A model generated the notes under the pieces. That model saw only the letters and a list, made by a program, of their open reading frames with translations. It was not told the origin of the DNA and searched no databases. Shown piece after piece: positions 505 through 64,000 of a stretch of DNA of 64,000 nucleotides. The DNA comes from Raillietiella orientalis. Its lineage: Eukaryota. Each line of letters begins with the position of its first letter. Positions within the stretch are counted from its first letter, which is position 1. Made by a program: the position numbers and the translations under genes. The DNA is taken from assembly GCA_036172245.1 (NCBI GenBank), contig JAYWIR010000016.1, positions 2,356,001-2,420,000 of the forward strand, written 5' to 3'.

Positions 505-989
505 TCTATTGAATTCACAGAACGGTACATGAAATTTAATGCCGCTCGTCCTACATCCTTATTAGTTGCCTGATTTTGTCATTCGCACCACTACAAAGAT
601 GTAATTTGGGAAATCTGTGGCGAATGTGTGATGCGGAATGAGTTCAGACTCAAAGAACTTGAATTCCACACAGCATAAAAAATAAAATCATGGAAGAACG
701 TTGGTTGAAGCAAGCAGAAATAGGTGAATGATGAACCAAATTGGGAACGATGTTGAAAACAACATGGACATTCTCTATGGTAAATAATGAAATCTTGGAA
801 TCTAGAAAGGAGGAAACCTAACACGCTACAGTCATTTTTCGTCTGGATGCCCTGATCCATGGTTGTGCTCAATGAATGTTGCGATTTCCATGACGAGTAA
901 CCCTTTTGTAAGTAAGTGATCTGCTGTATCTTTGAGTATATATTCTGCATTCTATGAATTGAATTGAACGCTCTTTATTTTGAGACATT

Positions 990-1607
990 TTGCATTTTTT
1001 TTTCTTTTGGTTCTCAAAGAGTGCTGAAAAACCGTTCGCCTCCTTAAGAGGGGAATTCACGAAGCTCTTTAACACTGTCTCATGCCACCCGAGGGTGCAT
1101 GTTATCTTCACGTCAGAGTACCCTGGGAAGGTACCTCCCTATGAATCCAAGAGGCTCTGGAGAAAGGAGTTCTTTCTTCTTACTTTTGGGAGGAAACCCG
1201 TAAGGGAACCCTCGCCCGAGCTGTCTCCGAAGGGAATCCCGAATGGAACCGTTCCCTCGTTCTCTCCAGATGGGTCCGCCGGAGGGGGTCCACTCATTTT
1301 CTTTCCGAAGGGAACTCTCAAAGGGATCGCTTCTTGTTTTTATTCCTGTGAAGGGAACCCCAAAGGACGCTTCCAAATTTCTCTAAAGGGCCGCTCCCCG
1401 AAGGGAGCAGCGCGCTTCTTGACACACTGGATCTCCATCCAGTCTTGGGGGTCTTCTCCCCTAAGGAGGAGGATGGCTCCATTTTCAAAACCGGAGGGGA
1501 ACCCTGAAGGGAACCGACTCCTTGATTCTTGGAAGCATCCCCGAGGATCGACTTCCGATCCCGGCCAGTTCATGGAAGCATCCGGTTCCCACCAGTGCCG
1601 CATCCGA
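990..1607 (-). mobile_element. 3' body of a tRNA-derived SINE-like element, interrupted at ~1607 by an L1/Tx1-like insertion
   Basis: Colinear with the copies at 18160-18997, 41600-42255 and 60680-61357: internal GAAGGGAAYCC-rich repeats and a shared A-rich tail. Confidence 0.7.
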
Positions 1608-4600
1608 CGCTGCACGGACGTGTCTTTCGTTCGCTCCGCGCCCGGTGTGTCGACTTCTTTTTCCTAAGTGGTTTGTGTGGATTCGGTGGTGACGAAGGAA
1701 GCAATGCCTGACACCACCACCAACGAAGGCAGGGGAAAGACGCCCTCATCTCCCCCAGAGGCTATGAAGGTGGAGACGTGCGCCCCCACAGAATCGTCCC
1801 TTGAGCCAGCGAGGGCTTGGAATGCGTGACTGCGGCCCTGTCGCCGGCAGCCTGGCCGAACAGAAGGCCTGCATTGAGGAGGGCTACAACTAGTCCTCTT
1901 CTACAAGGTACTCCTCTACACTTATATAGTCCGGAGAGCGCGGCCGCCTTGTCGAAGGCGATGTACGCTCACAGCGTACAACAAGAGCTTCGTGCGATGA
2001 CCGTCCGGAGCGGAGATCAATACGCTGAGGTGGTCTGCAAGCAAGCAGACCTTACCCAACGATTGCTGAGGACCCCCCTTTCTGTGGGAAGCTGGAGGCT
2101 CTTTCCGATCACGGTGAACCGCTCGATGGTGGTCCACCATCTTGGGATAACGTTACGGATGACCAAGGAGTCCGTCCACAAGGAACTCAACAAATATGGA
2201 ACGGTCCACGAGCTGTAGGCGAAGCCCTCTCCCTTCGTGGAGCATAGCGGGCTTTCGGGTGGCCTCGCGGCTGCTCCGATCACCATAGGCGAGGGCTGTG
2301 GGTTGCCCCACAAAATACAGGTCGCCGGGAAACCGGTATACCTGTGGTACGTGAAGAAACCCAAGTACTGCTTCCATTACGAGTGCTCGGGCACTCCAAA
2401 AAGAGGTGCCCGAATGTGCAGTGCCAGGAGTGCCAAGCCCCGTGGCACACCAGTACGGTGTGTCCTCAAAGTACTGTCCGCATCGCGTCTGCCAAAAATG
2501 GCAAAAAGCGCGAGGTTAAAAAATTATAAAAATTTCAGCGAAAGCCGCCGCACAAACTGCTACCTTCGTGCCACTAGCTAAGGCTGTCCTATCGACCTCA
2601 GCCGAAAGTGCTTAAAATGTTGAGAGGGACAGCCAGGAAGGTTGGCAGGTAGTCAGGTATAAAAAAGCCTGAAAAAGGCTGAAAACAAAGAAAAAGCGAT
2701 CACGAAAAAACAAAGAGCTGCCGTGTAGTCGTAGAACGCGTTCTCGCGATCGACCAGCGCGGAGCTGCTGAACTCGTCCTTGCCACGCCACCCCTCGAGA
2801 AAGTTAGCGAGGAGGGGAGCGAGGAGGCGGCGTCCCTCGGAAACGACGTCGAGCGAAAGGAGAAGGAGCTCGCTGCCACGCTGCAGCGACCCTCCAAGGC
2901 CGCGAAAAAGGCCCTGAGGCACCCGGCCTCTACCAAGGGGTCCGAGACCTCGGACTGCGAGGCGGAAGCCAGAAAGGCAACTTCCGCCGCCGCTGAACCC
3001 CGCCGGAAGTCTGGGAGAAATTCCAAGACCATGCGGAGGCACATCGCCCCCGTCGAAGGGGAACAGATCGTCTCCGGAAGCAAAGGTGCACGAGCGTAGC
3101 AATTCGGGACTCATTGCCCGAAGTAGTACCGCGCTCCGAGGCGAATGGGATGAAGGGGGTGGAGGCTGGAAGGGTCTGGTGGTGAACAAGGCGAAGTCGT
3201 CTGTAGTTCCCGTTGGTGCGGCGTGGGCAGGGTGGCTGGGCTGGATCCGACTGAGGATCCCCTCGGGCCGGTACTTAAAGTACCTGGGCGTTCCACTGGG
3301 GAACTTTTGCCCCTCAGAAGCCTGGTCCGAGCGTCTTCAGAAAGCACTGCAGGCGCTCGGCCCGTTCCAATGAGGCAGGTTCTCCCTGCCGAAGCGGGAC
3401 GTGGTGTGGAACGCCTTCCTGGCCCCCTTCCTCCGTCCCCTACTTTTTGTTTGCCCCCCGCCATGCAGCATTAGGGAGCGGACGATGGACCTCCTCCGTA
3501 TCGCCCTCTGGGGCAAAGGGAGACACCGAGTCCCCCTTAAGGACTTGTGGGCTCCACGCCGGACGGCGGTCTAGATCTCTTCCTGATGCTGGAACAAATG
3601 GAACTGCAGCTCCAGTTTCGAACACTTGCCCTCGCGGAAAAGCTCTGGAGCACCACCTGCTGCCAACCTGCACGTCTTCTCTTCCAGCAAGCCACCGACA
3701 GCGTGGGGCTCGCGTCCTTCCTTGCGTGCCCTCCACGCAGCCTCATCCACTGCGGACTGCGCCTTCGGCAGGTGGCCACGCTGGCCACGAACAACGGATG
3801 GATCTCGTGCCGCCCCGCGAACGGTAGTGCCCGGTTGAAGGGAACCGTTCGCACGTGGACGAGGATCCAGGAGCCAAGCGCGAACAGGTGCGACGTTTCG
3901 TGTACGCGCTCAACAACAACTGCACGCTCCGGGAGATCCTGGGAGATCCCGCGAAGAGCGAATGGGCAAGAAAAACCTCGCTTTCCGCTGCGCCGCCCTC
4001 CCTTAGGGAATCGTGAACACGGCTAGGTGGGAGGTTATTGTGGAAATCTCCGGAAGGAGAAGAGGACTGGACAGGTGGATGACAGGTCAGCCCACCGACG
4101 CTGCATCCCCGATTGCTCGACCTGGGACCTTTGCTCTGGGGCGTGCTACTGGCTATTCCGGAAGAAGACCTGCAGTGATCCCCGGTGCTCATAAACACCC
4201 GTGCCCTCCCCTTGGAGTGGTAGGAGTCGGCGTTGATGTTGCTGCACTGGGTCTCCCGTGCAACGCTCGCCGGCATCATTGGCCATGCGGGGGAGAGAGC
4301 CGACTCGAACTGTGCCAGGCGCGGGGAGCGGGAATCCCTCCTGCACCTCCTAGTGGAATGTGATCCCCTGTCCCTTGAAGACGCTTTGCCGCGACCATTG
4401 GAACCCCTGGTGGCAATGCCAGAGATGTTGTGAAGCATCTCTTCCTGAGCGACGCCCCCAAGCCGGCCGCATCCCTAGCAGCACTTTGCTGCCTACGAGG
4501 CGGGAGCGTGGCTGCATGGAGCCATGCCAGAAGAGGCCAGAAAGACTGGAGCGGCAACTATATTGCTATCCTCTTCATGAGGAATGCGTCAAGATGGGAA

Positions 4601-4882
4601 CCATAAAACAGGAACTTGCAAGGATGCAGACGATTCCCTCCAGCACACAGATTCCCTTCCCTTCCCAAACCCTCCCATTTTTTGACTATGTTTTTTGTTT
4701 TCCTTTTTTCTTTTTGTTTGTCTCCCCTTCCCCTGTGCTGCCGAGGTGACCCCGCTGGCCTGCGTACCAGATCCTTGCAGGTTCTTTTTCGATTTCATAA
4801 GTTACGGGGAAGGATCAAACGTGCTGCCACAGACATTTATGTTTATTTCTTATAAATAAAGGACCCGGTGTGACCGGGTGCC
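1608..4882 (+). mobile_element. L1/Tx1-clade non-LTR retrotransposon, internally deleted and frameshifted
   Basis: ORF1 remnant from ATG ~1704 with two CCHC-type knuckles (CFHYECSGH.KKRC; CQECQAPWHTSTVC, ~2370-2465). RT C-terminal motifs GLVVNKAKS and YLKYLGVPLG (~3170-3300). C-terminal zinc motif CARRGERESLLHLLVEC (~4310-4360). T-rich 3' UTR, AATAAA at 4855-4860. Confidence 0.9.
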
Positions 4883-5060
4883 AACCAGTGCCACCTCACC
4901 CGAAGTCTTGTAGGCCAACCAGCGTCATCTTGCGGGTAGGAACTCGAAATCCACGACTCACCTATTCCTTGGCGAAGATCGGATCCCATGGGGATTCGAA
5001 CCCGCAACGCTTGATGCCACGCGCGGAGACCGCCGTGGCCACACGGCCGCGAGCGCGGGC
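4883..5060 (-). mobile_element. 5' part (tRNA-like head) of the SINE-like element
   Basis: Minus strand: GGCC-GTGTGGCCACGGC-GGTC (D-arm/A-box-like), GCGGGTTCGAATCCC (B box), then the family-conserved block GCAAGATGACGCTGGTTGGCC. Confidence 0.8.
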
Positions 5061-5499
5061 TTGTAGCATTCTGAGGCACGTTGCGCTGTTACGCTTGGTT
5101 TGCACGGTTTATGCCCAGAGGAGAGCTTTGAGTTGTTATTATCATCCACTCTGCATTGAGCTTTTTTTGCTGCACCTTGGCTTCCAAATAAAATCTTCAG
5201 TTCTAGATTCTATTTAGCTGCACGTGCATTTTCATTTTCGGAAACAAAAGACGAGAACGATGTCGAAATCTTTTCAGACCAATGTGATTCCTGCATATTC
5301 CCCTTTCTGGAACTTGATATGTAATTTTGTAGACTCATTGCCGAGTGCACGTGGAATTTTTTTCCCTCTTTTGCGTCTTAAGCAAAAGGAAGGAAAATCC
5401 AATTCTGTCAGGAGGAAGTACAGATTTTGTTCATGGGTAGATGCACCTCATTACCGCGCTTCTGACGTCTGAGTGGATTCATTCCAGCACCCCCTAATT

Positions 5500-6549: not shown

Positions 6550-7300
6550 AGAAAATGTTTTTTCAGGGAGGGGAGGGCATGGAAGGGATCACTGCTGACC
6601 TCGATTGGTTTTCTGAATCCTGTTCAGGATTCCGACAAGTGCTGTTCTATTATTATTCCGATGGGGCCATCTTGATGCGGTATCCAGAAGGATCGTCGTC
6701 CAGTGGTTGGTGTTCCTGCTATTTTGCCTTCTCTTGGCGTTCCACCTCGCCCGATTCCGCGAACACAGCGGAGAAGTGCTAGAGACGAGGCGTGGGGCAA
6801 GGCATCACGCATGAAGAGGCTCCAGAAAATGCCTTTAGGGTCGCTTAGTGGGATATTCAGGATCGACGAGAGTCGATCCCAAAGTTCACGGAGGGCGACA
6901 CAGTCTATTAAGAGATGCGGGAAGGTTTCCCTTTCGCCGCATTCTGCACAATGGGCATCCGCGCTCCCAAGTGTCCAGTGAGAGAGGCGTACTCTGCCTT
7001 GGAGTCCCCAATGCAAGAATAGCAACGCCATCTCCTGCCACTTCCGGGGGAGGGTGCCACCGTTTCAACACGCTGGAGGCCACTCCACCTCCTTCGGAGG
7101 TATTGCGAGCAGCTCGCCCCAGCGTGCAAGTCCTTTGGGTGGTACACTCAGTGCCGCAGCGTATCCGCTAGCTGCCGAGTTGTCCACGCCTTCAAGAAGC
7201 CTCTGATGAGGCAGGTCACTTCCCACGTTGCCGGATCGTTGCTGCCCTCAGCGTTCCCAAGAGCTTCCTCCTACACTGCTGTTAGTGCTGATTCCCCACT
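6550..7300 (-). mobile_element. 3' fragment of an L1/Tx1-like ORF2 (diverged subfamily)
   Basis: ORF 6624-7031 has LHWG...CAECGERETFPHLLIDC...LFMRDALPHASSLALLRCVRGI, homologous to 4233-4520. Confidence 0.85.
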
Positions 7301-18159: not shown

Positions 18160-18997
18160 ATGGGCATCCTTTGGGGTTCCCTTGTCCTCGCTATTTTCCT
18201 TCCAGCTTTTTTTTTTCTTTTTCGGGTTTTCTTTTCTTTGGTTCGCCGAGTACCTCAAGAACCATCGCACGCGTGGCGTCCCGCGCAGCTTTTTGACACT
18301 GTAACACACCATCCGGGAGTGCGTGTAATTCTTCAAGATAGGGGGTACCTCGGAGAAGGGGGCACCCTATGATTCCGGGAAGGACTCCGTAGAAGGGAGT
18401 CCGTTCTTATTAAAGCATGGGGAGCGATCCCTGAAATGGAGATCACCTCCGCCCTGGTTGTCTTCGAATGGGAACCCGAGGGGAATCTCTTCCGGAGGGA
18501 CCCCCGAAGAGGACCGCTCCATTATTTCTTCTCCGAAGGAACCCGAAAAGGGTTCGCTATTAGGAGTTTCTTCTCCGAAGGGAACCTGCGAATTCCCTGT
18601 TTCCTCTGAGGAGAATCCCGTAGAGACGCTTCCAAATTTTCTCTGTAGGGTGCTTTCCGAAGTCATCAATCCACCAACTCCATGTTAATCTATGAAGGGT
18701 CCCCTCGCTCGAGGGGGACGAGGACTCCATTTTCACAACTGGAGGAGAGACCCGAAGGGAACCGGGCTCTTTGATTCCTAGAAGAGGAGGGTGAACTTCC
18801 AATCCTGGCCAGTCAACAACCAGTCAACTTCCATCGTTGCTGCGCCCGAAGCTCGTGGGCCAGCTAGTGTCATCCTGAGGGGGGAAGGGACTCAATACCC
18901 ACGACGCACCCTCGATCCTTCCCCGGGTAGGATTTGAACTTGCGACGCTTGACGCCACGCGCAGAGACCTCAGCCACAGGGTCTTCGACACGGGCCA
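18160..18997 (-). mobile_element. Near full-length tRNA-derived SINE-like element
   Basis: Minus strand: GACC-CTGTGGCTGA-GGTC D-arm, AAGTTCAAATCC degenerate B box, GGATGACACTAGCTGGCC block, GAAGGGAAC-type internal repeats, A-rich tail. Confidence 0.8.
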
Positions 18998-41599: not shown

Positions 41600-42255
41600 T
41601 GGAAATCCTTTTGGGTTCTTTTCTGTCTTCGTCGTTTTCCTTTCAGCTCTTTTTTCGTTCTCTGAGAACTTCAAGAACTGTCACGCGCCTGGTGTCCCAC
41701 GCAACTCTTTGATGCCGTACCGCGCCACCCGAGAGTGCGTGTAACTCTTCAAGATAGGAGGTACCCTATGAATTCCAGGAAGGACTCCGAAGAAGAGAGT
41801 CTATTCTTCTTTAGTGGTTGGGGATCCCCAAAGGAGAACTCCACCCTGGCTGTCTCCGAAGGGAACTCTGAAGGGACGCTTCCGAAATTTCTCAGAAGGG
41901 CGCTCCCCGAAGGGAGCGGCGCGCTTCTTTGCACTTTGGAGAGGTGTCACCAATCACCAGCTGCGTGGTACGAGGCGGAAGGTCCCCTGTGAGGGAACCG
42001 GACTCCTTGATTCCGTTTCCAGGAAGGACCTCGGAGGTCGACTCCCAATCCCGGCCGCTTATCGGGGGCATCGGTTTGAACCGCCAACAGTGCTGCCGCG
42101 TCCGAATGGAAGGCAACCAGCGTCATCTTTCGGGATTGATTCAAACCCACCCTCCCCCCACTCTCGGGGTCGATTCTTCCCGAGTATTCGAACCTGCGAC
42201 GCTTGGTAATGCGACGCCTTGCAGAGACCGTGACCACTTGGCCTTCGACGCGCGT
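41600..42255 (-). mobile_element. tRNA-derived SINE-like element
   Basis: Minus strand GGCC-AAGTGGTCAC-GGTC (A box/D arm), GCAGGTTCGAATAC (B box), AGATGACGCTGGTTGCC block, internal repeats and shared tail. Confidence 0.8.
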
Positions 42256-44361: not shown

Positions 44362-44541
44362 GAGCCACGTTGGAGATCGCGTGGCTGCGGTCTCCGCGCG
44401 TGACACCTGGAATCGCGGGTTCGAATCCCGTCGGGGATGGGGGAGCGACCGACCCAGAGAGTGCGTCGTTACGTTTTTCAAGCACCCCCGGCAAGATGAC
44501 GCTGGTTGGCCTACAAGACTTCGGGTGAGGTGGCACTGGTT
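44362..44541 (+). mobile_element. tRNA-like head of the SINE-like element, ending at an L1/Tx1-like 3' end
   Basis: GATC-GCGTGGCTGC-GGTC D arm, GCGGG-TTCGAAT-CCCGT T arm, conserved block GCAAGATGACGCTGGTTGGCC. Confidence 0.8.
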
Positions 44542-45896
44542 GGCACCCGGTCACACCGGGTCCTTTATTTATAAGAAATAAACATAAATGTCTGTGGCAG
44601 CACGTTTGATCCTTCCCCGTAACTTATGAAATCGAAAAAGAACCTGCAAGGATCTGGTACGCAGGCCAGCGGGGTCACCTCGGCAGCACAGGGGAAGGGG
44701 AGACAAACAAAAAGAAAAAAGGAAAACAAAAAACATAGTCAAAAAATGGGAGGGTTTGGGAAGGGAAGGGAATCTGTGTGCTGGAGGGAATCGTCTGCAT
44801 CCTTGCAAGTTCCTGTTTTATGGTTCTCATCTTGACGCATTCCTCATGAAGAGGATAGCAATATAGTTGCCGCTCCAGTCTTTCTGGCCTCTTCTGGCAT
44901 GGTTCCATGCAGCCACGCTCCCGCCTCGTAGGCAGCAAAGTGCTGCTAGGGATGCGGCCGGCTTGGGGGCGTCGCTCAGGAAGAGATGCTTCACAACATC
45001 CCTGGCATTGCCACCAGGGGTTCCAATGGTCGCGGCAAAGCGTCCCCAAGGGACCGGGGATCACATTCCACTAGGAGGTGCAGGAGGGATTCCCGCTCCC
45101 CGCGCCTGGCACAGTTCGAGTCGGCTCTCTCCCCCGCATGGCCAATGATGCCGGCGAGCGTTGCACGGGAGACCCAGTGCAGCAACATCAACGCCGACTC
45201 CTACCACTCCAAGGGGAGGGCACGGGTGTTTATGAGCACCGGGGATCACTGCAGGTCTTCTTCCGGAATAGCCAGTAGCACGCCCCAGAGCAAAGGTTCC
45301 AGGTCGAGCAATCGGGGACGCAGCGTCGGTGGGCTGACCTGTCGTCCACCTGTCCAGTCCTCTTCTCCTTCCGGAGATTTCCACAATAACCTCCCACCTA
45401 GCCGTGTTCACGATTCCCTAAGGGAGGGCGGCGCGGCGGAAAGCGAGATTTTTCTTGCCCATTCGCTCTTCGCGGGATCTCCCAGGATCTCCCGGAGCGT
45501 GCAGTTGTTGTTGAGCGCGTACAGGAAACGTCGCACCTGTTCGCGCTTGGCTCCTGGATCCTCGTCCACTTGCGAACGGTTCCCTTCAACCGGGCACTAC
45601 CATTCGCGGGGCGGCACGAGATCCATCCGTTGTTCGTGGCCAGCGTGGCCACCTGCCGCAGGCGCAGTCCGCAGTGGATGAGGCTGAGTGGAGGGCGCGC
45701 AAGGAAGGACGCGAGCCCCACGCTGTCGGTGGCTTGCTGGAAGAGAAGACGTGCAGGTTGGCACCAGGTGGTGCTCCAGAGGTTTTCCGCGAGGGCAAGT
45801 GTTCGAAACTGGAGCTGTTGTTCCATTTGTTTCAGCATCAGGAAGAGATCTAGACTGCCGTCCGGCGTGGAGCCCACAAGTCCTTTAGGGGGACTC
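44542..45896 (-). mobile_element. 3' 1.35 kb of the L1/Tx1-like element, near-identical to 3528-4882
   Basis: Reverse complement aligns with copy 1 with only scattered substitutions; the ORF-track peptides are identical or nearly so. Confidence 0.95.
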
Positions 45897-45941
45897 TCTG
45901 CATTGCTGGATCCAGGTGGGGTCATCGCGCCGCCCTCTAGA

Positions 45942-45968
45942 GGTCTTTTGGCTAAGATCAAAGTGTAG
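45942..45968 (+). pseudogene. U2 snRNA 5' fragment (U2 nt ~11-36)
   Basis: GGTCTTTTGGCTAAGATCAAAGTGTAG versus U2 GGCCTTTTGGCTAAGATCAA(A)GTGTAG. The AAAG form is the invertebrate-type variant; the match stops inside GUAGUA. Confidence 0.8.
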
Positions 45969-46108
45969 AGGTATTGGGCGGTGCACTGGATGGCACCTTT
46001 ATCGAGAAGTCCTCTTGTTGCCTTGATCCAAGCGGCGACGATCCCGCGTAGGCAGCACAGGGCTGCTAACGAGGTCCCAGGCCGGAGGGAGTCGGAAACG
46101 AAGAGGGC

Positions 46109-46843
46109 TTTCAGAAGACATTCGACTGCGTCGATCAGGGGCTTCTTCTGAAGCTGTTGGAACGCTTGGGCTTCCCGGCCGCGTTTTCGGTCTATCTGCG
46201 CTCCAGCTGGCGCCACACGCTCGTCAATATCTCTTTCAGTGGGCAGACGGTGCACGGCGTGCCAGTGCGACGCTGCATACGGCAGGGAGAGCCTGAGCTC
46301 CCTGCTCTTTAGCACCTATTTCGAATTGGTGCTGAGGGCATACAGGGAGACTCTGGCTCTCCACCCGCGCGTATGTCCCGGAACGCCTGCCGTCTCAGCA
46401 TAAGCGGACGATCCTCTGCTGCTGCTCCCCATGTCCAACCCGGTTGCGCACTCGACGGTTTCTTCGAGCTGCTCAGTCGTGAGACGGGCCTGTCTGAACA
46501 AGGCGGAGTCATCCGTGGTTCCCGTTGGTGCGGCGTGGGTTGGGTTGCCGGACTGGATCCGATTGAGTATCCCCACGGGCCAGTACTTAAAGTACCTGGG
46601 CGTTACTCTGGGGGACTTTTGCCCCTCAGAAGCCTGGTCCGAGCGTCTTCAGAAAGCACTGCAGGCGCTCGGCCCCTTCCAACGAGGCAGTTTTTACCTG
46701 CCGCAATGGGCCGCGGTGTGGAACGCCTTCGTGGCCCCCTTCCTCCGTCCCCTACTTTTTGGGTTCCCCCCGCCATGCAGCATTAGAAAGCGGACGATGG
46801 ACCTCCTCCGTATCGCCCTTTGGGGCAACGGGAGGCCCCGAGT
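46109..46843 (+). mobile_element. RT-domain segment of the L1/Tx1-like family (pseudogenised)
   Basis: FQKTFDCVD, IRQG.SLSSLLF, VSA*ADD, LNKAES and YLKYLGV; the 3' half closely matches 3180-3531. Confidence 0.9.
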
Positions 46844-47475
46844 GAAGCTGCAGGACGAGGGGAAGTGTGAATCCTGAGTGTGCCAGGTGTGGGGAGCGGG
46901 AATCCCTCCCTCACCTGTTAGTTGACTGTTACCCTTCGGCACCTTTAGGAACGTCTTGGAACTTCCCTGGGGATCCCAGTTGGCAGCACCCCCAGAGACG
47001 TTTTCCGGCTTCTCTTCGTGCGGGACGCCCTGCAGCCAGCCTCAGCCCTGGCAGCACTATGCTGCATCCATGGAATTGTGGCGGCTTGGAAGATGAAGGA
47101 TGAAGGAAGCCCAGGATGAAGACGAGAACAAGAGGGACGTAATCTCGTATGCTGTTCGCTTCCTGCAGAGAGCTACCGGATGGTCCAACTGGGACGATTG
47201 AGGAAGGATCTCCAGGGCATCCTGCAAAGCATGGACCCTCCTTCCAGTGGACAGTGATCCCTTTCTGATCCTTCAATTTCTTTTTTTTTCTTATTGTTTC
47301 ATTTTTCTTTTTGTTTTTTCCCCATCCCCTTCCACTGCCGAGAAGAGTCACGCTGGTCTGCGTCCCGGAGTCCCGGCAGGTCCTGCTAAATGTTGGCCGT
47401 TAGTGGGGCCTTGTACCACGTTTCGTAATAACTTTATGAAGAGTTTGAATAAACGTCCCGGCATATCCGAGTGGC
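46844..47475 (+). mobile_element. 3' end of a diverged L1/Tx1-like subfamily
   Basis: CARCGERESLPHLLVDC, T-rich UTR, CTGCGT stem-loop, AATAAA at 47448-47453. Confidence 0.85.
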
Positions 47476-47479
47476 AACT

Positions 47480-49700
47480 CCGAAGCCTGCAGATAGGAGC
47501 ATGGGCTTCCCGGCCTCCTTAAGGGCCTACCTGTTCTCTTGCTGGCGCAACGCGATAATCAACGTTTTTTTCAGATATCAAAAGGTGTGCGCCGTGCCGG
47601 TGCGGCGGGGCATTAGGCAAGGCGATAGCCTGAGTCTCCTGCTCTTTAGTACCTATTTTGAATTGGTGCTGAGAGCGTACAGGGAGACTTTGGCCACCTT
47701 GCCGAGCTCGTGCCCGGTACGCCTGCCGTGTCGGCGTATGCTGACGATCTTCTGCTCCTGCTGCCCATGTCCTCCCCGGCATCTTCACTCGAGAACTTTT
47801 TCGAGCTGTTGAGCCGCGGTACAGGACTTAGGGTGAACAGGGCAAAGTCATCACTGGTGGCGGCTGGTGAGACGTGGGCTGGACGGCCTGACTGGATCCG
47901 CTTGGGGAACTCCACGGGCAGGTAATTAAAGTACCTTGGAGTTCCGCTGGAGGACTTCTGCCCATCAGAAGCCTGGTCATGTCGTCTCCAGAAAGTGAAG
48001 TTGGCGATCAGCCCGTTTCTGGAAGGCAAGTTCCACTTGCCGGAACGGGCCGCAGTATGGAACGCGTTCGCGTCCCCCATCCTCGGCCCCCTGCTTTTTG
48101 TTTGCCCCGTCCCCCCCAAGTTGAAAAAACAGAGCAAGGACCTACTGCGCATCGCCCTGTGGGGCCACGGGAGGCCCCGAGTCCCGTCGATGGACATGTG
48201 CGCTCCGCATCGTGACGGCGTTCTTAGCCTCCTGACGTTGGAGTGGATGGAGATACAGCTGCTTCCCACCCATGTGAGGCGGGGCGTTTATTCCTAAACC
48301 ATCCGGGAACAGGATTCCCGGACAAAGGACACAGAAAAAACGAATGGAGAGATCCCCGACACGCAGGTCGGTAAATCCGAAAGTCCGGAACGGGAGGGAG
48401 GGGTCCACAAATACACGCATAAAAAATAGAAATCAAGATATGGGGAAGGGAGGGGATAGGGGTCTTTGGCTTCGGTCGTTCCTTTCCTTCAGAACCGGCG
48501 GTGGATGCCGGAGATCTCATTCCTTGCGTGTTCCGGAAGATGAGGCCTCGAGGCAGCCGACGTCATGTTTTCGTCGGCTACTCCGGTGGCCTGTCGACGA
48601 ATCGCCTGCGTCTCCAGCTCTCGGTGGGCCTTGTCGATGGCGCGGGTGCAACGGACAGTTGCGACCATCGCACCTAAGGACAGGCCGCCTGGTGTGAAGA
48701 AGCGGCGCATCAAATCCCTTGCGGTGTCTCCCTTGAGCAGGAGAGCTGAGGCCAGCCTCCTCCACAGTCCTTGGAGGACACCGCAGTCCGAAAGCAGGTG
48801 GGGGAGCGTTTCGGCTTCTCCGCACCTTTTGCAGTTTGGGGAGACAACCCCCCCGGAAACACGGTTCGTCCGCTGGTTGGAATGGAAACCCCAATGCACC
48901 AGCATGACAACGTCCTGTTTCCACGAAAGGGGGAACACAGAAGTGTTCGAGCACGAGGGAGGGACCGCAAGTTCTTCGGGGGGCACACTAAAAGTTAGCT
49001 CTACCGAAGGAGTCCCTTCGCGATGTTGCAAGGCGTGGCGGTGTCCTCGCAACATCGAGTCCTAGTCGCTAGTCCTCGAGCCCTGGAGCTCTCTAGTCCT
49101 CCAGCCGCCCATGGGTCGGTTTGCTCCTGCGATGGCATAGGCGACCTCCCACCTCGCCGGTAGGCAGCTGTCATCACTCGCTCTGAGGGCTGACAGTGCG
49201 TCGGCGAGGGGCGTGACGGCCAGGCGAGTCCACTTCTGGTTGTTCCAGACCTCCTCCACCGTACAGTACGGAGAGAGGTTGGCGCAACGGAGTTCCAAAA
49301 GGGAAACATCCTGTTGCCTTGCATGGAGATACAGCTGCGATGGCGAACCATAGCCAAAGCAGCAAAGTACTGGAGCACCCCCTGCTGCGTTCCGGCCCGC
49401 CTCCTCGCCCGCCGTGTATTCGGAACGGAGAAGCTTGAGTCTCATCTTCTGTGCCGCGGTCAGAAGATCAGAAGATGCGACCTTCTCCACGGATGCATAG
49501 CCACCCTGGAGAAGGAGAACAGCTGGATAATATGCAGCCCCGCCAACTCTAGAGCGTGGCTAGAGGAAACAGTTGTCACGTGGGCGAAGTTGTACGAGAG
49601 AAGAAACGAAACATGGAACTGCCTGCAAATCGGCATCTACGCCCGCTGCCCACTGCGGAAGATAGTCCAGTGTCCCGCCAGGAGCACGTGAGCGGAGACG
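47480..49700 (+). mobile_element. L1/Tx1-like RT fragment split by a nested insertion at 48263-49322
   Basis: RRGIRQGDSLSLLLF, SAYADDLLL, GLRVNRAKS and KYLGV; the frame ...MEIQL resumes at 49323 after a 16-bp duplication. Confidence 0.9.
48263..49322 (-). mobile_element. 5'-truncated L1/Tx1-like insertion with 16-bp target-site duplication
   Basis: ATGGAGATACAGCTGC at 48247-48262 and 49323-49338; encodes CKRCGEAETLPHLLSDC; AATAAA (minus) at 48287-48292. Confidence 0.9.
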
Positions 49701-51729: not shown

Positions 51730-53640
51730 ATGTCTTGCTTTTTCGGGATTCTGTTGGGGGGGCTGTTGACCCAGCCATTCTGGGGCGTTTATCGTAAGGA
51801 GCAAAACAGGGAACATAAGATCCCTTGTGAATCAGCAACAGAAAGAAAAGAAGTCCTGGTTGCGGGGTCCTTCGACTCGTGGGTCAGTCGAGGAAGACTG
51901 GCTGGACTGACAGTGAGCTAGGAAATATAGAGTGGTAGCAAACAGTTGGCGGGTAGGACGTAGGGGGATGCTACCCCACTCCTATATCCTCTGCTGTTTT
52001 CCTTCTTCGTATGGTCCACCTGCATGCCTCCTTGACGAAAGAGATAGTGATGGAGATGGACGCTGGTTGTCTCCGGGGCAGCTCCAGAGAGTATCGGACC
52101 TTTGGAACACCACGGGTGCTCAACATGGAGCCGCGACTAAGGCGGAGGGAGAGAGACATTCTTGTGGGAAGAACCGAGAAGAATGGCCGCGGTAGCTGCG
52201 TACCCTTTGGATGAAGGAGTACTGAGACCGGTTGTCTCCCATGGCCGACAGAGGACGCCAGCAGCACCTCATCAGCAGGTGCAGGAGAGGCTCCATCGCC
52301 TCGTACCGATTACATTCCGGGGAAACGTTCCCCCTCGTAACGTGATCCATGAACGTTGTGAGAAGAGCGTCACCTCGTGCTGCCACCTTAGGAGAAGGAC
52401 TGGTTTCAAACAAGGGGGAAAGGACGAACAGTTCTTCCAGGGACGCACTCGAAATTTCTGCTCACCGACTCGGCCCTTTCTCGATGCAGGGCGTAGCCGC
52501 CTCGGTTAACACTTTGGGTGGGCGTCCGTCCAGGACCTTCTCGACTCCTGCAATCTTTCAGGGGAACTCCCACCTTGCCGGCTGGCAACTGCCGTTGCTT
52601 TTCCATGGAGAAGAGAGCGCTGCGGCCAGAGGTGCGCGGACCCACTTATCGGACCACTTATTCTTCTACAGGGAAATACTGCTGAACCGCTGAGTCGGGA
52701 CGAGGCCTTCAGAGCTGGTGCCGGTCACGAGTGCCCAGACATCCACATGTTCTTTCCGCTAAGCATGAAAATTCAAAGGGCGGCAGGAGATCCATTCAGC
52801 AAGGAGGCGAGTTGCTTCAGCGGGAATTCCCAAACACTGGTTTGAGCCGAGGTCTCCCGAACCACTTCTAAACAGAACGCAAGGATAAACTGAAAGGAAA
52901 AGGAGAAGACTCCAGCGCAATGAGGAAGCCATGAGTTTCGAACTGGAGCCTGAGTATCTTTCGGGATCCGAATCTTCCCCAAGAGCAGAACTACTTAGGA
53001 TCCTGCATCTGACATATCCCACAACGGAATCGTCTCTGGACAGATTCGCCTGATTTAGTTGAATTTGCAGCCCATGGGACTTTGTTTGGAGCCAGTGTGC
53101 CTCGTTGTCCTTCGACATCAAGTGTGTTTTAATTCCTTGGCTGCAGAGATAAAAGTACTGATAAAAGTGTACTCTGTGTGTTGTAGTTCTCTGCCGCATG
53201 CGCGGAATACTGGAAAAGTGGAATGCATCGAGGGGAGGACACAGAAGCCGGAACGCCATTCATTGGGCAGTCCTCTCCATGGAGAAGGCATGCCGATGGC
53301 GCCGGTTAAGGGCAATTCAACCGGCACTTGCCCGCATCCGAAACCGGATGCAGAGCACTCATCCCGGCAAGCAGTGATCCCATCCCATTCCTCCTCACCC
53401 CATAAAACTTTGTCCCCCCGGCGTTTTTGTTTTTTGTTTTCTTTTTTGGTTTTCCCGTCCCTTTCGCCCGTGAAGTGTACCACACCGGCCAGCGTGTCGG
53501 TAAGGGCAAGTGAAAAAACACTTCCAGAACCATGTGTTCTGGAAGAAGCAATGCCCAAAAGCCTAAATTTAAATATAACAACGAATGCCGTTCCGAATAA
53601 TGTAGACTTTTAAAAATAAAAGCCCCGGCTTATCCAGGCG
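51730..53640 (+). mobile_element. Decayed L1-like APE fragment(s) followed by a 3' end
   Basis: VLVAGSFDS (GDFN-like) and GDGRWLSP (GxWKLN-like); VLCRMRGI C-terminal motif; 3'-UTR stem-loop at 53484-53501; AATAAA at 53615-53620. Confidence 0.65.
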
Positions 53641-53654
53641 AAAAACTCTGATAA

Positions 53655-54300
53655 AGGACACTCTGCAGAGAGTGTCTCTCTCCCGCCGCCTTGATCGTGG
53701 CGCCATGTTGAGCACCCGTGGTGTTCCAAAGGTCCGATACTCTCTGGAGCTGCCCCGGAGACAACCAGCGCCCATCTCCATCGCTGTCTCTTTCGTCAAG
53801 GAGGCATGCAGGTGGACCATAGGAAGAAGGAAAACAGCAGGGGATCTCCACCATCTTTCAGAGGATATAGGAGTGGAGCAGCGTTCCCGGTGCTCCCCAC
53901 GTCCTACCCGCCAACTGTTTGCTACCTCTCTATATTTCCTAGCTCACCGTCAGTCCAGCCAATCTCCCTCGGCTGACCCACGAGTCGATGGAGTCCAAAG
54001 CGCCCACCCAAGTGCAAGATAATCATCGACTCAAGCTCTTGTGTACCAACATGTTTATGCACTCTCAGATTTCACTGCGCCTAGAAGACGTTCTGCCCTC
54101 TGTGTTTTAAAGTTCTCTGGCTCCACAGGCATCCAAGTGCTCTTCGACTCCAGCCTCATCCTCGTTCTTCTTCGACTGGAAGGTGGTTGGTTGGATCACA
54201 GCGCTAAACGGGGTCGGCTCTTAGCCGAAAGCCACCGAGGTTAGCGAGCTGGAATGATAGGTGCGTCAAAATCCGTGACAGAAAATCTCCGCGCTCCAGC
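53655..54300 (-). mobile_element. Second, inverted copy of the APE fragment
   Basis: 53673-53988 is the reverse complement of 51872-52158 apart from substitutions and two short indels. Confidence 0.75.
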
Positions 54301-55899: not shown

Positions 55900-57860
55900 T
55901 GAGAAAGTCTACGTATGCGTTTTGATTGACGGCAATGGAGATTTAGGAAATCTTTACTACGTGTCGCTATCAAAGTGCGCGCCGTCTGGATGCTGCCTGG
56001 GACACGAAAAGATTAGTGAGCTCTGCTTGCCGCCGATAGGGTGAAAAGAGAAGAAAGCGCCCAGAAACCTCAGAACAAATGACCAAACTCATCTGAGTTA
56101 CGTAGCGCCTCACGAGTTTCAAAAGGAAGATACTTGCAGCTGGAGAAGCTTCGGTTGCTAGGGGGAGTTATAGGTGTACAAGGAATACTGGGGGATATTT
56201 GCACGTGGAAAAGTCATCACCGACTCTCTAAATGGTCCTGTAAAGATGAGTACCAAAATGTAGGTCGCAGATGAAGAACGGCAATTTAAGGAGGATACCA
56301 AGGGGGACTGCAGGGATGCTGAGGATATGGAATCGAGTTGAATCATCTGAAGATACTGGCTGTGACTTAGAAGTATAGGGTTTGGACCAGACATCTTCAC
56401 AGGGAAAGCGGCACAAAAGACCTCTCCTGCCTACGCACGTTTCTTCTTCCTTCATCTGGTTGAATGTGAAAGCAGCCGTTTCTCGAGATGAAAGACAGAC
56501 GGAGAGGAGCTAAGCCCAGTCCTCAAGCGAATCCACCATAGACACTGCTTCAGCAGGTTTCCTTTCCATCTGAAGGACTGCAGGACCCGGACTGAGGATG
56601 GTATTGGCCTTGCTCCTCATTTTGATCGGTGGTCTGCCATCAGTGGCTCAAGTTCAGCTTCGAATACTGGATCTGGAAAATGTCCAGGGAAAACGAAAAA
56701 GGGGTGCACGATGACAGCATGTTTCCATTTTGGGCACAGAACTTCCCAGGGAAAACAAAATTGAGGGTCTTTTCATACTTTGATAGACCCCCTTTCAGAC
56801 CAGCACCTCTCCTGGTCTTCTTTGAAAGACCAAATCTCCTCTGGGAAATCGATAGATGCGCGACAATGTAGCAAAGTCATCGTTGCGCATCCAACAGCTT
56901 CGTCTTGGAACACAAGTCCCTGTGGGATCTGAAGAGACATTCTATTTCAGAATGGGTAACTGCACGAGCTGGACGAATTCCTCGGATTTCTATCTGGAAC
57001 GATGTCCGAAAGGAAATTCTAAAGATTCCGGAGACGCATAAGACTAAAGTTTTGCGTCTCACATTTTTTGGAAGAAGGCTGCTGAAGCCAGTGGGTCACA
57101 GAGACGTTCAGGGACAGAGTGATCCAGAGTGACATTTTGCATCGACTCTTTCTGCTTGCAAAAGGGTTTTCGGATTCAATTGTCGTGACGCGAAAAGGGG
57201 TGAGGTGGGGCACCCAGTCTTTATTCTCGACGAGGAGGTGAAGTCAATGGGACCCATCGCTTCGAAACGCTTCCGTCACTAAATATTCTATTCTCGGCGT
57301 CCCCGGAACTCATCCTCTCGGCCCTCCCGATGACCTTGGAGAGTAATGGCACACTGCACTCGTGCCATCTGCTCGCAACCTGACTCCTGAAAGACCAGAA
57401 TAGAAGCTCCCAGCTGCGTCCTTTGTCTGGACTCTTTTGATCTCCGAGATGTCTGCAGCAATTGATGGATGTCAGGTAGCAATTGTTGATGAAGATGCCC
57501 TTACATTCTCGTTTGCTGCCCCATGCTTGCTGTTGCCCCTTCCTCTGTGCAAGGTGCCTCTAGGAATAACTTCAGGATGAAAGAATGGATCTCTCACTTT
57601 CTGTAAGGAAAACTCTTTGGAGCTCATCCTGAAACTAATAGTTCCTTTGAGTAGCTCCCTCTGCAAAAGAATTTTTCTCCGTTGGTTCCCAATTTTCGCT
57701 CCCTAATCCATTTCGGCAAATATCTCACAGGAATTTACACCAGTGAAAGACATGAGAGACTTCTGCATGAGATGCTGGATATTTTCAGGAGTGGAACTAC
57801 TCTCCTATGCGGTGCTTCAGGTCTGATCTACAGGCAGAGGAAGAAAGACTATAGTCTCAG
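55900..57860 (+). mobile_element. Decayed R2/NeSL-type RT remnant
   Basis: Ordered remnants: PG.DGI-like (~56590), FRPAPLL (~56795), ISIWNDVRK (WLDL-like, ~56990), RKGVRWG (~57195), LQQLMD, GKYL (~57720). Confidence 0.55.
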
Positions 57861-57899
57861 GTAAGAGCTGGATGAGCCGGTGGTCCACAAGTCTCGAAA

Positions 57900-59430
57900 A
57901 GGCACCAGGGCTTAGATGCGATCATCCATCGATCGGGATCCATCGATCCGTCTCGGAGTTTCACGTCTGTTCATCTGGGGTGCTCGTCGCTCCCCAGAAT
58001 GTTGCTTTCTCAGCTTCCTGTCCTCCGTCTCTCGAGAGCCGACCGCTGGGGTTCTCCGGCTGCATCTGTTTGTCCGTCCTTCGTGTGGCATGGGCTGCAT
58101 AGATGTCGCTGGAGTAGCGGATGCACGAAGCCATCATCCGGTGCCTCGTCGTCACCAAGTGCTTCTTCCGAATCCCAAGATCCTGGAGCACCTCTTCGTT
58201 ACCTGGATCCCAGGCGTCCAGAGAGCCAACGATGAGAGCATGAACTCTGCATAGCTTCTCCCTTCTGCTTAGCTGGAGGGCTACCTCCTTGAGCTTTCCT
58301 TGTTTTTTCCTTCTAGCTGTGCTAAACGCCTCCCCTCCAAGCTCGTACGGGCAGCAGACGTCCAGCACTACGATCCGGTGGTTTCCTTTCTCCACCACAA
58401 AGTCCGGTCTTAAGAAGGAATTCGCTCCTGGAGCTCTCTGGGTAGTGGACATGGGTCGACTTTGCTTCATCCACTGCGGTCATGCTGATCATCTCTTCAA
58501 TCGCGTCGTGTCGCGCAATGGACAGATGAGTGTGCCCCTGCATCTGTTTAACATGTGAGAAACCGCTTCGTCTTCTGTCCGGTAGCGCCGATATGTGCGT
58601 TCTTCTGGTTTCATCTTGGGTCCAGCTCTGACTGCCAGGACGTTTAGTCTGGCTGCGTAGATGAATTCCTGGAATCTCAGGTAATCACCATTGGCGAGGA
58701 AGAAGCTTGAGGCGTGGTGCATGTCCACGAATTGCATGGCTTTTCCTTGGCTGATGTGCTTTGGACCAGGGATTGCCACACGTGTTTTCCCTGCAATGCT
58801 CCCACATAGGAGGTAATCTTCCTCCTCATGCTGCCGCTGAAGATGACTCCATTGACTGTTATGGTGGGCTCTCCATTAGGGAAAACCTGGCATCCAAATC
58901 CAAATCTGGACATCCAAATTTCCAGCGGACTTTTGTTCTACAGAATCCCCCGGAAGAGGAAGACGGAATGCAATCATGAATCCCATCTTGAGAGGAAATC
59001 CTCAAGGAAGCACGCTCGCCGTGGCACCTTCCCCTTACAAAAGAGAGCTTTTGTAAGGGGAAGGTGCCATTCAAAGCCACGTGGATTCGAAATAAAGATC
59101 GGCGACCCTGATCGCATATCCTGCGCTGGAGCTCCTGAAGTTTCGAAGAAGCGCTTTTGAACTGGTGACATTAAAAACAAGGGGAATGTACAGCACAGCA
59201 TCCGAGCTGCAGACAGGAGCAGCGGAGCTGCTCGATTTGCTGCTCGCTCCGTCGAGGAATCTTTTCGGCTCCTGCTGTGGAATTCTCGGGTGGCAGACAC
59301 CACTCGTGGGTTCTTTTCTTCAAAGCATCCTTGTCCGAGATGCTGCCATTTACTCCGTGAATCCAACATCTTCAGTATTGTGTGGCCATTTCTAAAGAGG
59401 CTCCGAAAGAGATCCGTTGAATACACTCAT
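57900..59430 (-). mobile_element. NeSL/Utopia-type non-LTR C-terminus (zinc motif plus restriction-like endonuclease), pseudogenised
   Basis: QGKA...SSFFLANG.YLRF..FIYAARLNVL, SHMLNRC...ARHDAI, LRPDFVVE...VLDVCCPYE...AFSTARRKK...ALIVGSLDAWDPGNEEVL...IRYSSDIY. This is the characteristic Utopia/NeSL C-terminal motif series. Confidence 0.88.
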
Positions 59431-60679: not shown

Positions 60680-61357
60680 GAGGATGCCTCTTTCGGTCCT
60701 GATCTTTTTTTGGTTTGCCAAGTGCTGAGGAACCCTTCGCCTCCTTAGGGGCGCTCATGAAGCCCTTTGGCACTGTCCACGCCACCCAAGGGTGTGTGCA
60801 TCTCTTCATACCCTGGAAGGACCACCCCATGAATCCAGGAAGGCTTCGAAGGAAGGAATCCTTTACTCTCACACTTGGGAGAAAACCACGAAACGAGCCC
60901 TTGGTCTGGTTGTCTTTGAAGGGAAGCCCGAAGGGAACCTCTTCCTTATTCTTTCCAGAGGGGTCTCCCAGAGGGAATTCACTTCTCATTTCTTCTCCGA
61001 AAGGAACCAGGAAAGGATCCACTCCTAGAATTTCTCCTCCGGAGGGAACAATGCAAGGGAACCGCTCCTTCTTTCCTCCTCTGAAGAGAATCCCGAATGA
61101 ATCTGCCTACGTGATTCCTGGAAGGATCCCAAAGTCAACTTCCCATCTGTGCCAGTCAACGGAGGCATCCGGTTTCAACCAGTCCTGCACCCGAAACCAA
61201 CCGAGACCAATCAGCGTCATCCTGCAGAGGAGGGGGGACTCGAAACCCAAGACGCGTCTCCCATTCTCGGCGTCGATCCTTCTCCGGGTAGGATTCGAAT
61301 CTGCAACCCTTGGTGCTACGCGCGGAGACCGCAGCCAAGCGGCCGCCAACACGACCT
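60680..61357 (-). mobile_element. tRNA-derived SINE-like element
   Basis: GGCC-GCTTGGCTGC-GGTC D arm, AGATTCGAATCC B box, GGATGACGCTGATTGGTC block, internal repeats; tail matches ~1000-1100. Confidence 0.8.
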
Positions 61358-61699
61358 TGGTCCTGATCAAGTCTCCATCTTGGTAGCAGAGAAGTTTCAC
61401 ATTCTCAAATCAGCGATGTTTGTACATTCAGTTCGAGGCAGCGAAGGAGTCGCGAGGGTCATCAGGGCTCTTCGAAGGTAGAAACTGTCTGAAATCCCAG
61501 AGCTTCGAATCGGTTTTCCCCTCGAGTTCCCAGCTTGTCGGGAGTCCCGAACCAGCTGGACGTATCCACTTCACTGCTTCCTCATGACCAAATTAGGATA
61601 TGCGGATGCTGGAGTCATCCGGAACGAATGATCGGAGAACGTGGTGTTCCAGCCTTGTGTTCTGTCCTTGCATGACCTTAACGGTTTTTGAAAATGTCT

Positions 61700-63849: not shown

Positions 63850-64000
63850 GAGGTTAATGGCACCTCTTCAGAGAGTGCAAAGAAGCGCGCCTTTCCCTTC
63901 TGGGAGCGCCCTTCTGAGAAATTTCGGAAGCGTCCCTTCGAGGTTCCTTTCAGAGGAGTAAACAGGAGCGGTTCCCTCGCGGGTTCCCTCTGGAGAAGAA
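63850..64000 (+). mobile_element. Internal fragment of the SINE-like family running off the window edge
   Basis: Reverse complement of 41860-41950 (AGTGCAAAGAAGCGCGCC...GGGAGCGCCCTTCTGAGAAATTTCGGAAGCGTCCCTTC). Confidence 0.8.

Follow-up and report, generated by a model that had tools for sequence, protein, structure and literature searches.

The window analyzed here, a 64,000-nucleotide stretch of Raillietiella orientalis DNA (assembly GCA_036172245.1, contig JAYWIR010000016.1, positions 2,356,001 to 2,420,000), holds between 44.4 and 49.6 kb a pile of at least six truncated copies, in both orientations, of one GC-rich APE-class LINE family, with a short piece of U2 snRNA sequence at 45942-45968 (+ strand) embedded in it. 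The LINE was mapped by tblastn with P0003, its nearest protein relative, and by nucleotide mapping on copy A (3181-4936, +), which served as reference for the 3' half and tail and is followed by an inverted SINE head at 4937-5063. Within the pile, copy B (44488-45898, -) is young, 98.2% identical to copy A, and 5'-truncated 43 nt left of the U2 piece. To the right, RT protein homology begins at 46109, the first base of copy C (46109-47496, +), which comprises the RT from the KAFD motif onward, a CCHC knuckle (46879-46929), the 3' UTR, and the tail; relative to copy A, it has lost approximately 750 bp after 46856, between the FLW-like region and the CCHC knuckle. Copy D (47497-48261, +), 5'-truncated in the RT, begins directly at the end of C's tail, and its broken end is abutted by the tail of copy E (48262 to approximately 49061, -), an ORF2 C terminus with a CCHC knuckle. 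A post-RT fragment, F, lies at 49218-49613 (+). The two RT blocks delimited by tblastn, 46109-46856 and 47501-48261, are those that a preliminary description of this DNA had correctly named. Between the U2 piece and copy C lies an inverted fragment, G, which meets C head-to-head at 46109-46116, where up to 8 nt fit both alignments.

Among 1.84 billion representative proteins, the nearest to this LINE was P0003, a 619-aa metagenome ORF with 66% identity to copy D (E 2.5e-77); all other protein matches were at most 30% identical. The best full-length relatives carry Exo_endo_phos, RVT_1, and zf-RVT domains, and the solved structure nearest to the RT was human L1 ORF2p (E ~1e-39, versus ~1e-17 to 7e-17 for R2). 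Given both the structure match and the endonuclease domain of the full-length relatives, the family probably belongs to the APE-class L1 superfamily, and we describe it as L1/Tx1-type, with the Tx1 placement putative. No fragment coding for the APE domain of the family was left in the window in a search with reference proteins. Pfam searches of single ORF pieces returned RVT_1 and zf-RVT at sub-threshold level only, and the CCHC knuckles scored below the Pfam cut-off (zf-RVT E 0.0075 in copy E and 7e-4 in an element at 6627-7064). A word-index protein search with the RT piece of copy C yielded no match at E <= 1e-3. When metagenome contigs were searched with P0003, seven loci were returned and no close locus was found among them; six were 22 to 35% identical, and the seventh (L006) was 61% identical over only 28 residues; the contig of P0003 itself was not among the seven.

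The U2 piece reads GGTCTTTTGGCTAAGATCAAAGTGTAG and corresponds to U2 nt 11-36 with C13 replaced by T and one extra A. In the alignment to the Rfam U2 model (RF00004), which covers model nt ~11-36, the aligned bases are otherwise all identical. The piece ends at G36, within the GUAGUA branch-point-recognition sequence. A U2-consensus pattern permitting an optional extra base occurred once in the window and in none of 100 dinucleotide shuffles; together with the Rfam alignment, this bears out the earlier identification of a U2 5' fragment (nt ~11-36) at 45942. No second copy of the window's own U2 24-mer was found in the window at up to 3 mismatches, and the Rfam model at its gathering score (46 bits) had no match in the whole window. 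Local scores of the piece were low (15.1 bits, E 1.9; also 11.8 bits, E 0.83) because it is short. Both this piece and a second one, at 458-508, are fragments and not genes. Immediately upstream, ATCGC at 45924 equals U2 nt 1-5, but the next 13 nt fit nt 6-10 only with a 6-nt and a 2-nt insertion. This possible continuation (45924-45941, +) is weak and by itself not significant, and the U2 block may start at nt 1 or near nt 8-11.

Two other origins of the block were rejected. The preliminary description had considered that the 27-mer might instead be an internal part of ORF2; extension of the RT alignment through the U2 block stayed at noise level, and the similarity was not significant. Nor does the SINE or the LINE tail itself appear to be derived from U2. 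By eye, they share TTGGC alone with the block, and alignment of the block to the tails scored below the null, with 894, 895, 913, 193, and 982 of 1000 shuffles reaching the observed scores. A 305-codon open frame (45401-46315, -) runs antisense across RT copy C, fragment G, and the U2 block into copy B. It strings together unrelated pieces and contains no Pfam family, and most likely arose as a side effect of GC-rich sequence.

On the right, the U2 block had been described as followed directly by L1/Tx1-like sequence. In the sense of the RT this was not confirmed, since RT homology starts only at 46109; the adjoining 40 or so nt resemble an inverted LINE tail. A frameshift-aware alignment found no RT similarity in 45969-46108 (score 22, reached by 87 of 100 shuffles), and an extension of the P0003 alignment up to the U2 boundary was rejected, since 45885-46108 scored 35 against 27.7 ± 4.2 in shuffled sequence and 10 of 150 shuffles did as well. 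Instead of RT, the 140 nt that separate U2 from the RT hold an inverted tail-like stretch and an inverted ORF2 C-terminal piece. The latter (46011-46116, -; ...LFVSDSLRPGTSLAALCCLRGIVAAW...), which lies 42 nt from G36, is 68.8% identical to copy A 4428-4536 (75/109 nt, E 9e-11) and 53/79 nt identical to copy C, and matches both at the protein level. Read along the minus strand, this C-terminal piece is followed by ...CTCGATAAAGG, then by TGCCATCCAGTGCACC GCCCAATACCT, and then by the complement of U2 G36. The ends of copies A and B consist of AATAAAGG, a hairpin of 15 nt, and GTGCCAACCAGTGCCACC....

The stretch at 45969-46010 (-) shows GATAAAGG and, after it, a core, GGTGCCATCCAGTGCACC (45982-45999), that matches the A/B tail. 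Across minus-strand 45969-46012, 17 of 18 aligned core bases agree with one 1-nt gap (19 columns), and ATAAAGG precedes the core as it does in A. The score of 26, against 13.1 ± 2.5 for shuffled sequence, was reached by 1 of 500 shuffles with A and 0 of 500 with B, and in a second scoring scheme by 3 and 1 of 1000, respectively; as an 18-nt core tested against four or five references, the match is only moderately significant. Similarity to the tail of copy C was weaker (124 of 500 shuffles, and 11 of 1000 in the second scheme), and the tail of copy E gave no match (229 of 500). The SINE itself was matched at a score that 105 of 1000 shuffles reached, and the core, being close to the SINE, could be SINE rather than LINE tail. 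The tail-like stretch lies 3' of G's C-terminal piece on the same strand, the order expected of a LINE 3' end. The two would together constitute one element if a 3'-UTR deletion of approximately 310 bp is allowed for, and the shortness of its tail is not odd because the tails of other copies (C and E) also stop at different points.

On the left, 25 to 29 nt (45899-45923) separate the 5' end of copy B from the U2 block and resemble neither LINE tail nor SINE. Comparison with the tails and the SINE found no similarity in two runs, the observed scores being reached by 808, 824, 579, 106, and 456 of 1000 shuffles and by 915, 573, and 922 of 2000, which argues against U2 as a later insertion into a continuous tail. 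The U2/LINE junction is a modest single-copy relic within a decayed LINE pile.

The second U2 fragment (458-508, -) matches model nt 34-84 with 40.1 bits (E 2.2e-6), below the gathering score. The preliminary description had recognized it correctly as U2 but placed its start at nt ~38; it begins at nt 34 (TAGAATCTG...), and the five preceding bases have no U2 match. The two fragments consequently do not both break at U37, as had been supposed, the breaks being 36|37 and 33|34; both U2 fragments of the window nevertheless have one end within nt 34-36. The flanks of the second fragment (380-1010) are unique in the window, and tblastn with seven reference proteins found no LINE at 509-3172. That the two pieces are the sides of one insertion, split by an inversion between A and B, was rejected by reasoning, as such an inversion leaves the outer flanks unchanged. 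No further U2 3' half was found in the window, either beyond the LINE pile or beside an RLE-type element farther downstream.

The LINE family is more firmly associated with a tRNA-derived SINE than with U2. Copies of this SINE, approximately 666 bp long, lie at 60700-61365 (-), 18363-18992 (-), 1002-1607 (-), 41720-42207 (-), and 63864-64000 (+). Its head is tRNA-like (with a box B-like GGTTCGAATCC), its body repetitive and rich in GGGAAC, and its end a short A-run; ARAGORN called no tRNA in the window. The 98%-identical copies A and B stop at the same base, and each is then followed by an inverted SINE head ending at approximately position 139. Beside B this is a head covering positions ~16-139 (44369-44487, +), and the heads next to A and B are different copies, ~68% alike. 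Over its last tens of nucleotides, the LINE tail is homologous to the SINE complement from position 140 onward, and SINE 7-162 aligns across the end of copy A into A's tail. At 60700-61365 and 18363-18992, intact SINEs present the site in its unfilled state, and SINE sequence from position 140 onward is absent from the 5' flank or junction of both A and B. The pattern of A and B looks like SINE-position-specific insertion, presumably guided by a transduced 3' tail, and the family's demonstrable target preference is the SINE position, not U2. The SINE association is the more solid by-product of this analysis, a testable case of target choice via 3' homology. A shift of this lineage from U2 to targets such as the SINE had also been proposed. 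The LINE fragment touching U2 already carries a SINE-like tail core, so no lineage move from U2 to the SINE is evident; if anything, a SINE-tailed LINE landed once at U2.

An RLE-class LINE remnant is also present in the window. The C-terminal part of this R2/NeSL/Utopia-like element occupies 57963-58746 (-) and contains an RPDFVV...VLDVCCPYE motif; 58078-58746 (-) matches the zf-C2H2+RVT proteins P0060 and P0077 (E 4e-6 and 0.002). The remnant lies 12 kb from the U2/LINE pile, and no U2 sequence was found near it in 57000-58200.

U2 genes are one of very few low-copy targets known to have been chosen independently, and at the same nucleotides, by two unrelated retrotransposon lineages. Keno elements are described as Tx1-clade, APE-type LINEs specific for U2 snRNA genes (Kojima and Fujiwara 2004, as reported in passages of PMC4640811, PMC4494074, and PMC6136364), and Utopia elements as RLE-type U2-specific LINEs in the corresponding passages of Kojima and Jurka 2015 (PMC4640811). 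According to section 6 of PMC4640811, the 3' flank of Utopia begins at U2 nt 39, identical to that of Keno. Utopia 5' flanks end ...AAGTGTAGTA in its S4 Fig, and passages of the same paper describe weakened specificity and variable 5' junctions. The Keno 3' target sequence is TCTGTTCTT..., given as TCTGTTCTTATCAGTTTAAT in a passage of PMC6136364. A literature search found nothing relevant in newer work on U2-targeting Tx1 elements. The break at 36|37 lies 2 nt upstream of the Keno/Utopia site, 38|39, so that the general claim of U2 as a retrotransposon target survives within the reading preferred below, but not as a simple 5' junction. As in Keno, as far as it is portrayed in these passages, an APE-class LINE is joined to U2 within GUAGUA, and truncated copies stand nearby in tandem in the U2 sense orientation. 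Unlike Keno, the LINE piece that touches U2 is inverted and is a 3' end, not a 5' end; the window has no junction of a LINE 3' end with U2 nt 39 onward; and the tail is SINE-like, with two young copies at the SINE position. With the LINE inverted and that 3' junction absent from the window, the testable features that define Keno are not those of this locus. With Utopia, in the portions of PMC4640811 cited above, the locus shares the same few U2 nucleotides; Utopia, however, has a restriction-like endonuclease, whereas the LINE copies around this U2 piece are L1-like.

The reading we tentatively prefer, though we would not call it probable, is that the U2/LINE junction is the TPRT 3' junction of an inverted L1/Tx1-type LINE at U2 G36|U37. 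U2-like DNA, whether a gene, a pseudogene, or an older fragment, would have provided the primer strand for TPRT. A nick in the U2 sense strand between G36 and U37, inside the single-stranded GUAGUA, would have supplied a 3'-OH that was extended on the 3' tail of the LINE RNA. The + strand product would be U2 ...GTGTAG, an A, the complement of the LINE tail, and the complement of the ORF2 C terminus (G), 5'-truncated at approximately 46116. Copy C would later have landed at, or been joined to, the 5' end of G, and D, E, F, and the young copy B would then have accumulated as the pile. U2 primer DNA followed by cDNA of a LINE 3' end on the + strand would be the signature of TPRT from such a nick. 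The observed elements of this order are the U2 identity of the block, its end at G36, and the inverted LINE C-terminal fragment; that the intervening stretch belongs to the family's 3' tail is suggested by its similarity, order, and strand.

Three further suppositions enter this TPRT reading: that G's tail and C-terminal piece were one element before the ~310-bp deletion, that priming and not some later rearrangement made the junction, and that the site was taken for a reason, as an exposed or cleavage-prone U2 site shared with Keno and Utopia, and not by luck. In its favor are the 2-nt distance of the break from the Keno/Utopia site and the two U2 pieces with ends in nt 34-36. Against it, there is one copy, its orientation is opposite to that of every described U2-targeting LINE, the tail match is short, the deletion is needed, and no U2 3' half lies beyond the pile; moreover, the near-perfect match at U2 nt 11-36 contrasts with a poor one at nt 1-10. 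The family otherwise neighbors a SINE, as copies A and B show, and its arrival at U2 may have been an off-target accident; the chance that a random hit falls within ±3 nt of 38|39 is ~7/188.

A possible, if doubtful, alternative is that the block is a U2 retro-fragment, a 3'-truncated ("tailless") cDNA of U2 nt 1-36 inserted into existing LINE tail or SINE-like sequence. The cDNA would have been made by a LINE reverse transcriptase that primed at the exposed branch-point-recognition region or switched to it. Precedents are described in passages of Kojima 2015 (PMC4494074), in which Tx1-group machinery repeatedly adds short U2 5' pieces, e.g. of 32 bp, to element 5' ends, and in which 3'-truncated snRNA retropseudogenes with TSDs occur. 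The U1 and U2 heads that the same passages describe for SINEU and Tx1-Mar elements stand at the 5' end, in the element's own orientation, and are common to many copies. The R. orientalis piece resembles them in its length (~30-36 nt), in coming from the U2 5' part, and in its association with machinery of the Tx1/L1 type; it differs in facing an inverted LINE 3' end in one copy. Two features of the locus fit a tailless retropseudogene. One is ATCGC at 45924, with which the block may start precisely at nt 1 of the RNA; the other is an AGGT...GGG repeat flanking it, AGGTGGGGTC directly before the block and AGGTATTGGGC directly after G36, which looks like a decayed target-site duplication. The match at nt 6-10, however, needs indels, and the putative AGGTGGGGTC/AGGTATTGGGC duplication needs two. 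Insertion into a continuous SINE or LINE tail would require the tail to resume on the left. The left flank has no similarity to the expected continuation, whereas the right flank does, and for this reason a block within a continuous tail was rejected as the main reading and kept as this rival. This rival leaves unexplained the second fragment, which extends 3'-ward from nt 34.

The first option of the preliminary description had been a 5' junction of a U2-targeted insertion. As a simple junction, this does not agree with the locus, where U2 abuts the inverted 3' tail of G and not the 5' end of C. An arrangement close to it, a Keno-like sense insertion with an inverted 5' part, is in our view unlikely. 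A U2-specific LINE would nick both strands, near 38|39 on the bottom and at 36|37 on top. From the first nick a sense copy would be primed, either C or an earlier one such as D, which would account for the tandem; from the top-strand 3'-OH a second LINE RNA would be primed, yielding inverted G head-to-head with C. The G|C joint, with its up to 8 shared nt, fits this scheme, as do the proximity to 38|39 and the C-D tandem in U2 sense, in which D starts from the exact end of C's tail; tandem insertions are described for target-specific LINEs in passages of PMC4640811 and PMC4494074. The scheme is opposed by G itself, which is not a copy of C's RNA and whose region is contained in C, so that two different RNAs would be needed in one event. 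Nowhere in the window, moreover, does U2 from nt 39 follow a LINE 3' end, and the tail of copy C is SINE-like rather than U2-directed.

The head-to-head arrangement also invites comparison with L1 5' inversions, which Ostertag and Kazazian in 2001 reportedly attributed to twin priming. As in those inversions, inverted and sense LINE segments stand head-to-head beside an upstream flank. The inverted segment here differs in carrying the 3' tail, in covering sequence that the sense copy also spans, and in sharing only ~67% identity with that copy. With that identity and overlap, G did not come from C's RNA, and classical twin priming for the G/C pair was rejected, G being closer to A (75/109 against 53/79 for C) and its region being present in C itself.

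Chance would offer another account: unrelated events in a decaying repeat pile (insertions, deletions, or end-joining) would have cut short a stray fragment of a U2 pseudogene, and the point at which it breaks would be meaningless. We consider it improbable. An accidental origin would suit a region in which 5 kb contain six or more LINE fragments, some sense and some inverted, and in which 25 nt left of the U2 block and the ~12 nt separating G from the tail core have no assignment. It would also suit a family whose demonstrable target is a SINE position, and a finding picked by a reader on the lookout for such coincidences. Against it, two U2 fragments end in nt 34-36, next to the one site known for two unrelated LINE lineages, and U2 is joined within 1 nt to sequence like a LINE 3' end, in the orientation that TPRT predicts.

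The other option raised previously, a U2-LINE template-switch chimera in which the RT jumps from LINE RNA to U2 snRNA and produces a same-orientation fusion with a 5'-truncated LINE, is highly improbable and close to refuted: chimeras of L1 with snRNAs have precedents (cited in section 19 of PMC4494074) and U2 has the orientation of RT copy C, 140 nt downstream, but the interval up to C is inverted LINE and not RT, the LINE touching U2 is antisense to it where the model requires the same orientation, and U2 stops at nt 36 instead of reaching its own 3' end.

Beyond the single junction, the TPRT reading could be extended to a lineage property, namely that an L1/Tx1-type lineage primes from the U2 sense strand at G36|U37, mirroring Keno and Utopia on the other strand and 2 nt away, while its SINE-derived 3' tail guides it to position ~139 of the tRNA-SINE. 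We regard this extension as a long shot. If it were true, the branch-point-recognition stretch of U2 genes would be a hot spot for a third, independently oriented lineage, and target choice would be set by transduced 3' homology and not by the endonuclease alone. Were a third lineage to arrive on the opposite strand, the convergence would seem to owe something to the site (its structure, its exposure, or a bias in its cleavage) as well as to the endonuclease. For now, one decayed junction is a lead and not a result.

Several other features of the window were recorded. Directly upstream of A's truncated 5' end, a GC-rich stretch (2650-3180) has long open frames on both strands; it has no Pfam match and no similarity to reference ORF2 proteins, and could be LINE 5' material or something else. 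At 6627-7064 (-) lies another L1-type ORF2 C terminus with a CCHC knuckle (the zf-RVT match of E 7e-4), from a different, more AT-rich family with a tail unlike those of copies A-G. With LINE/SINE ORFs and overlapping ORFs set aside, 57 of the 104 ORFs of at least 120 aa contained no credible Pfam family. An inverted repeat pair of approximately 300 bp, with 84.6% identity, occupies 51868-52162 and 53669-53992.
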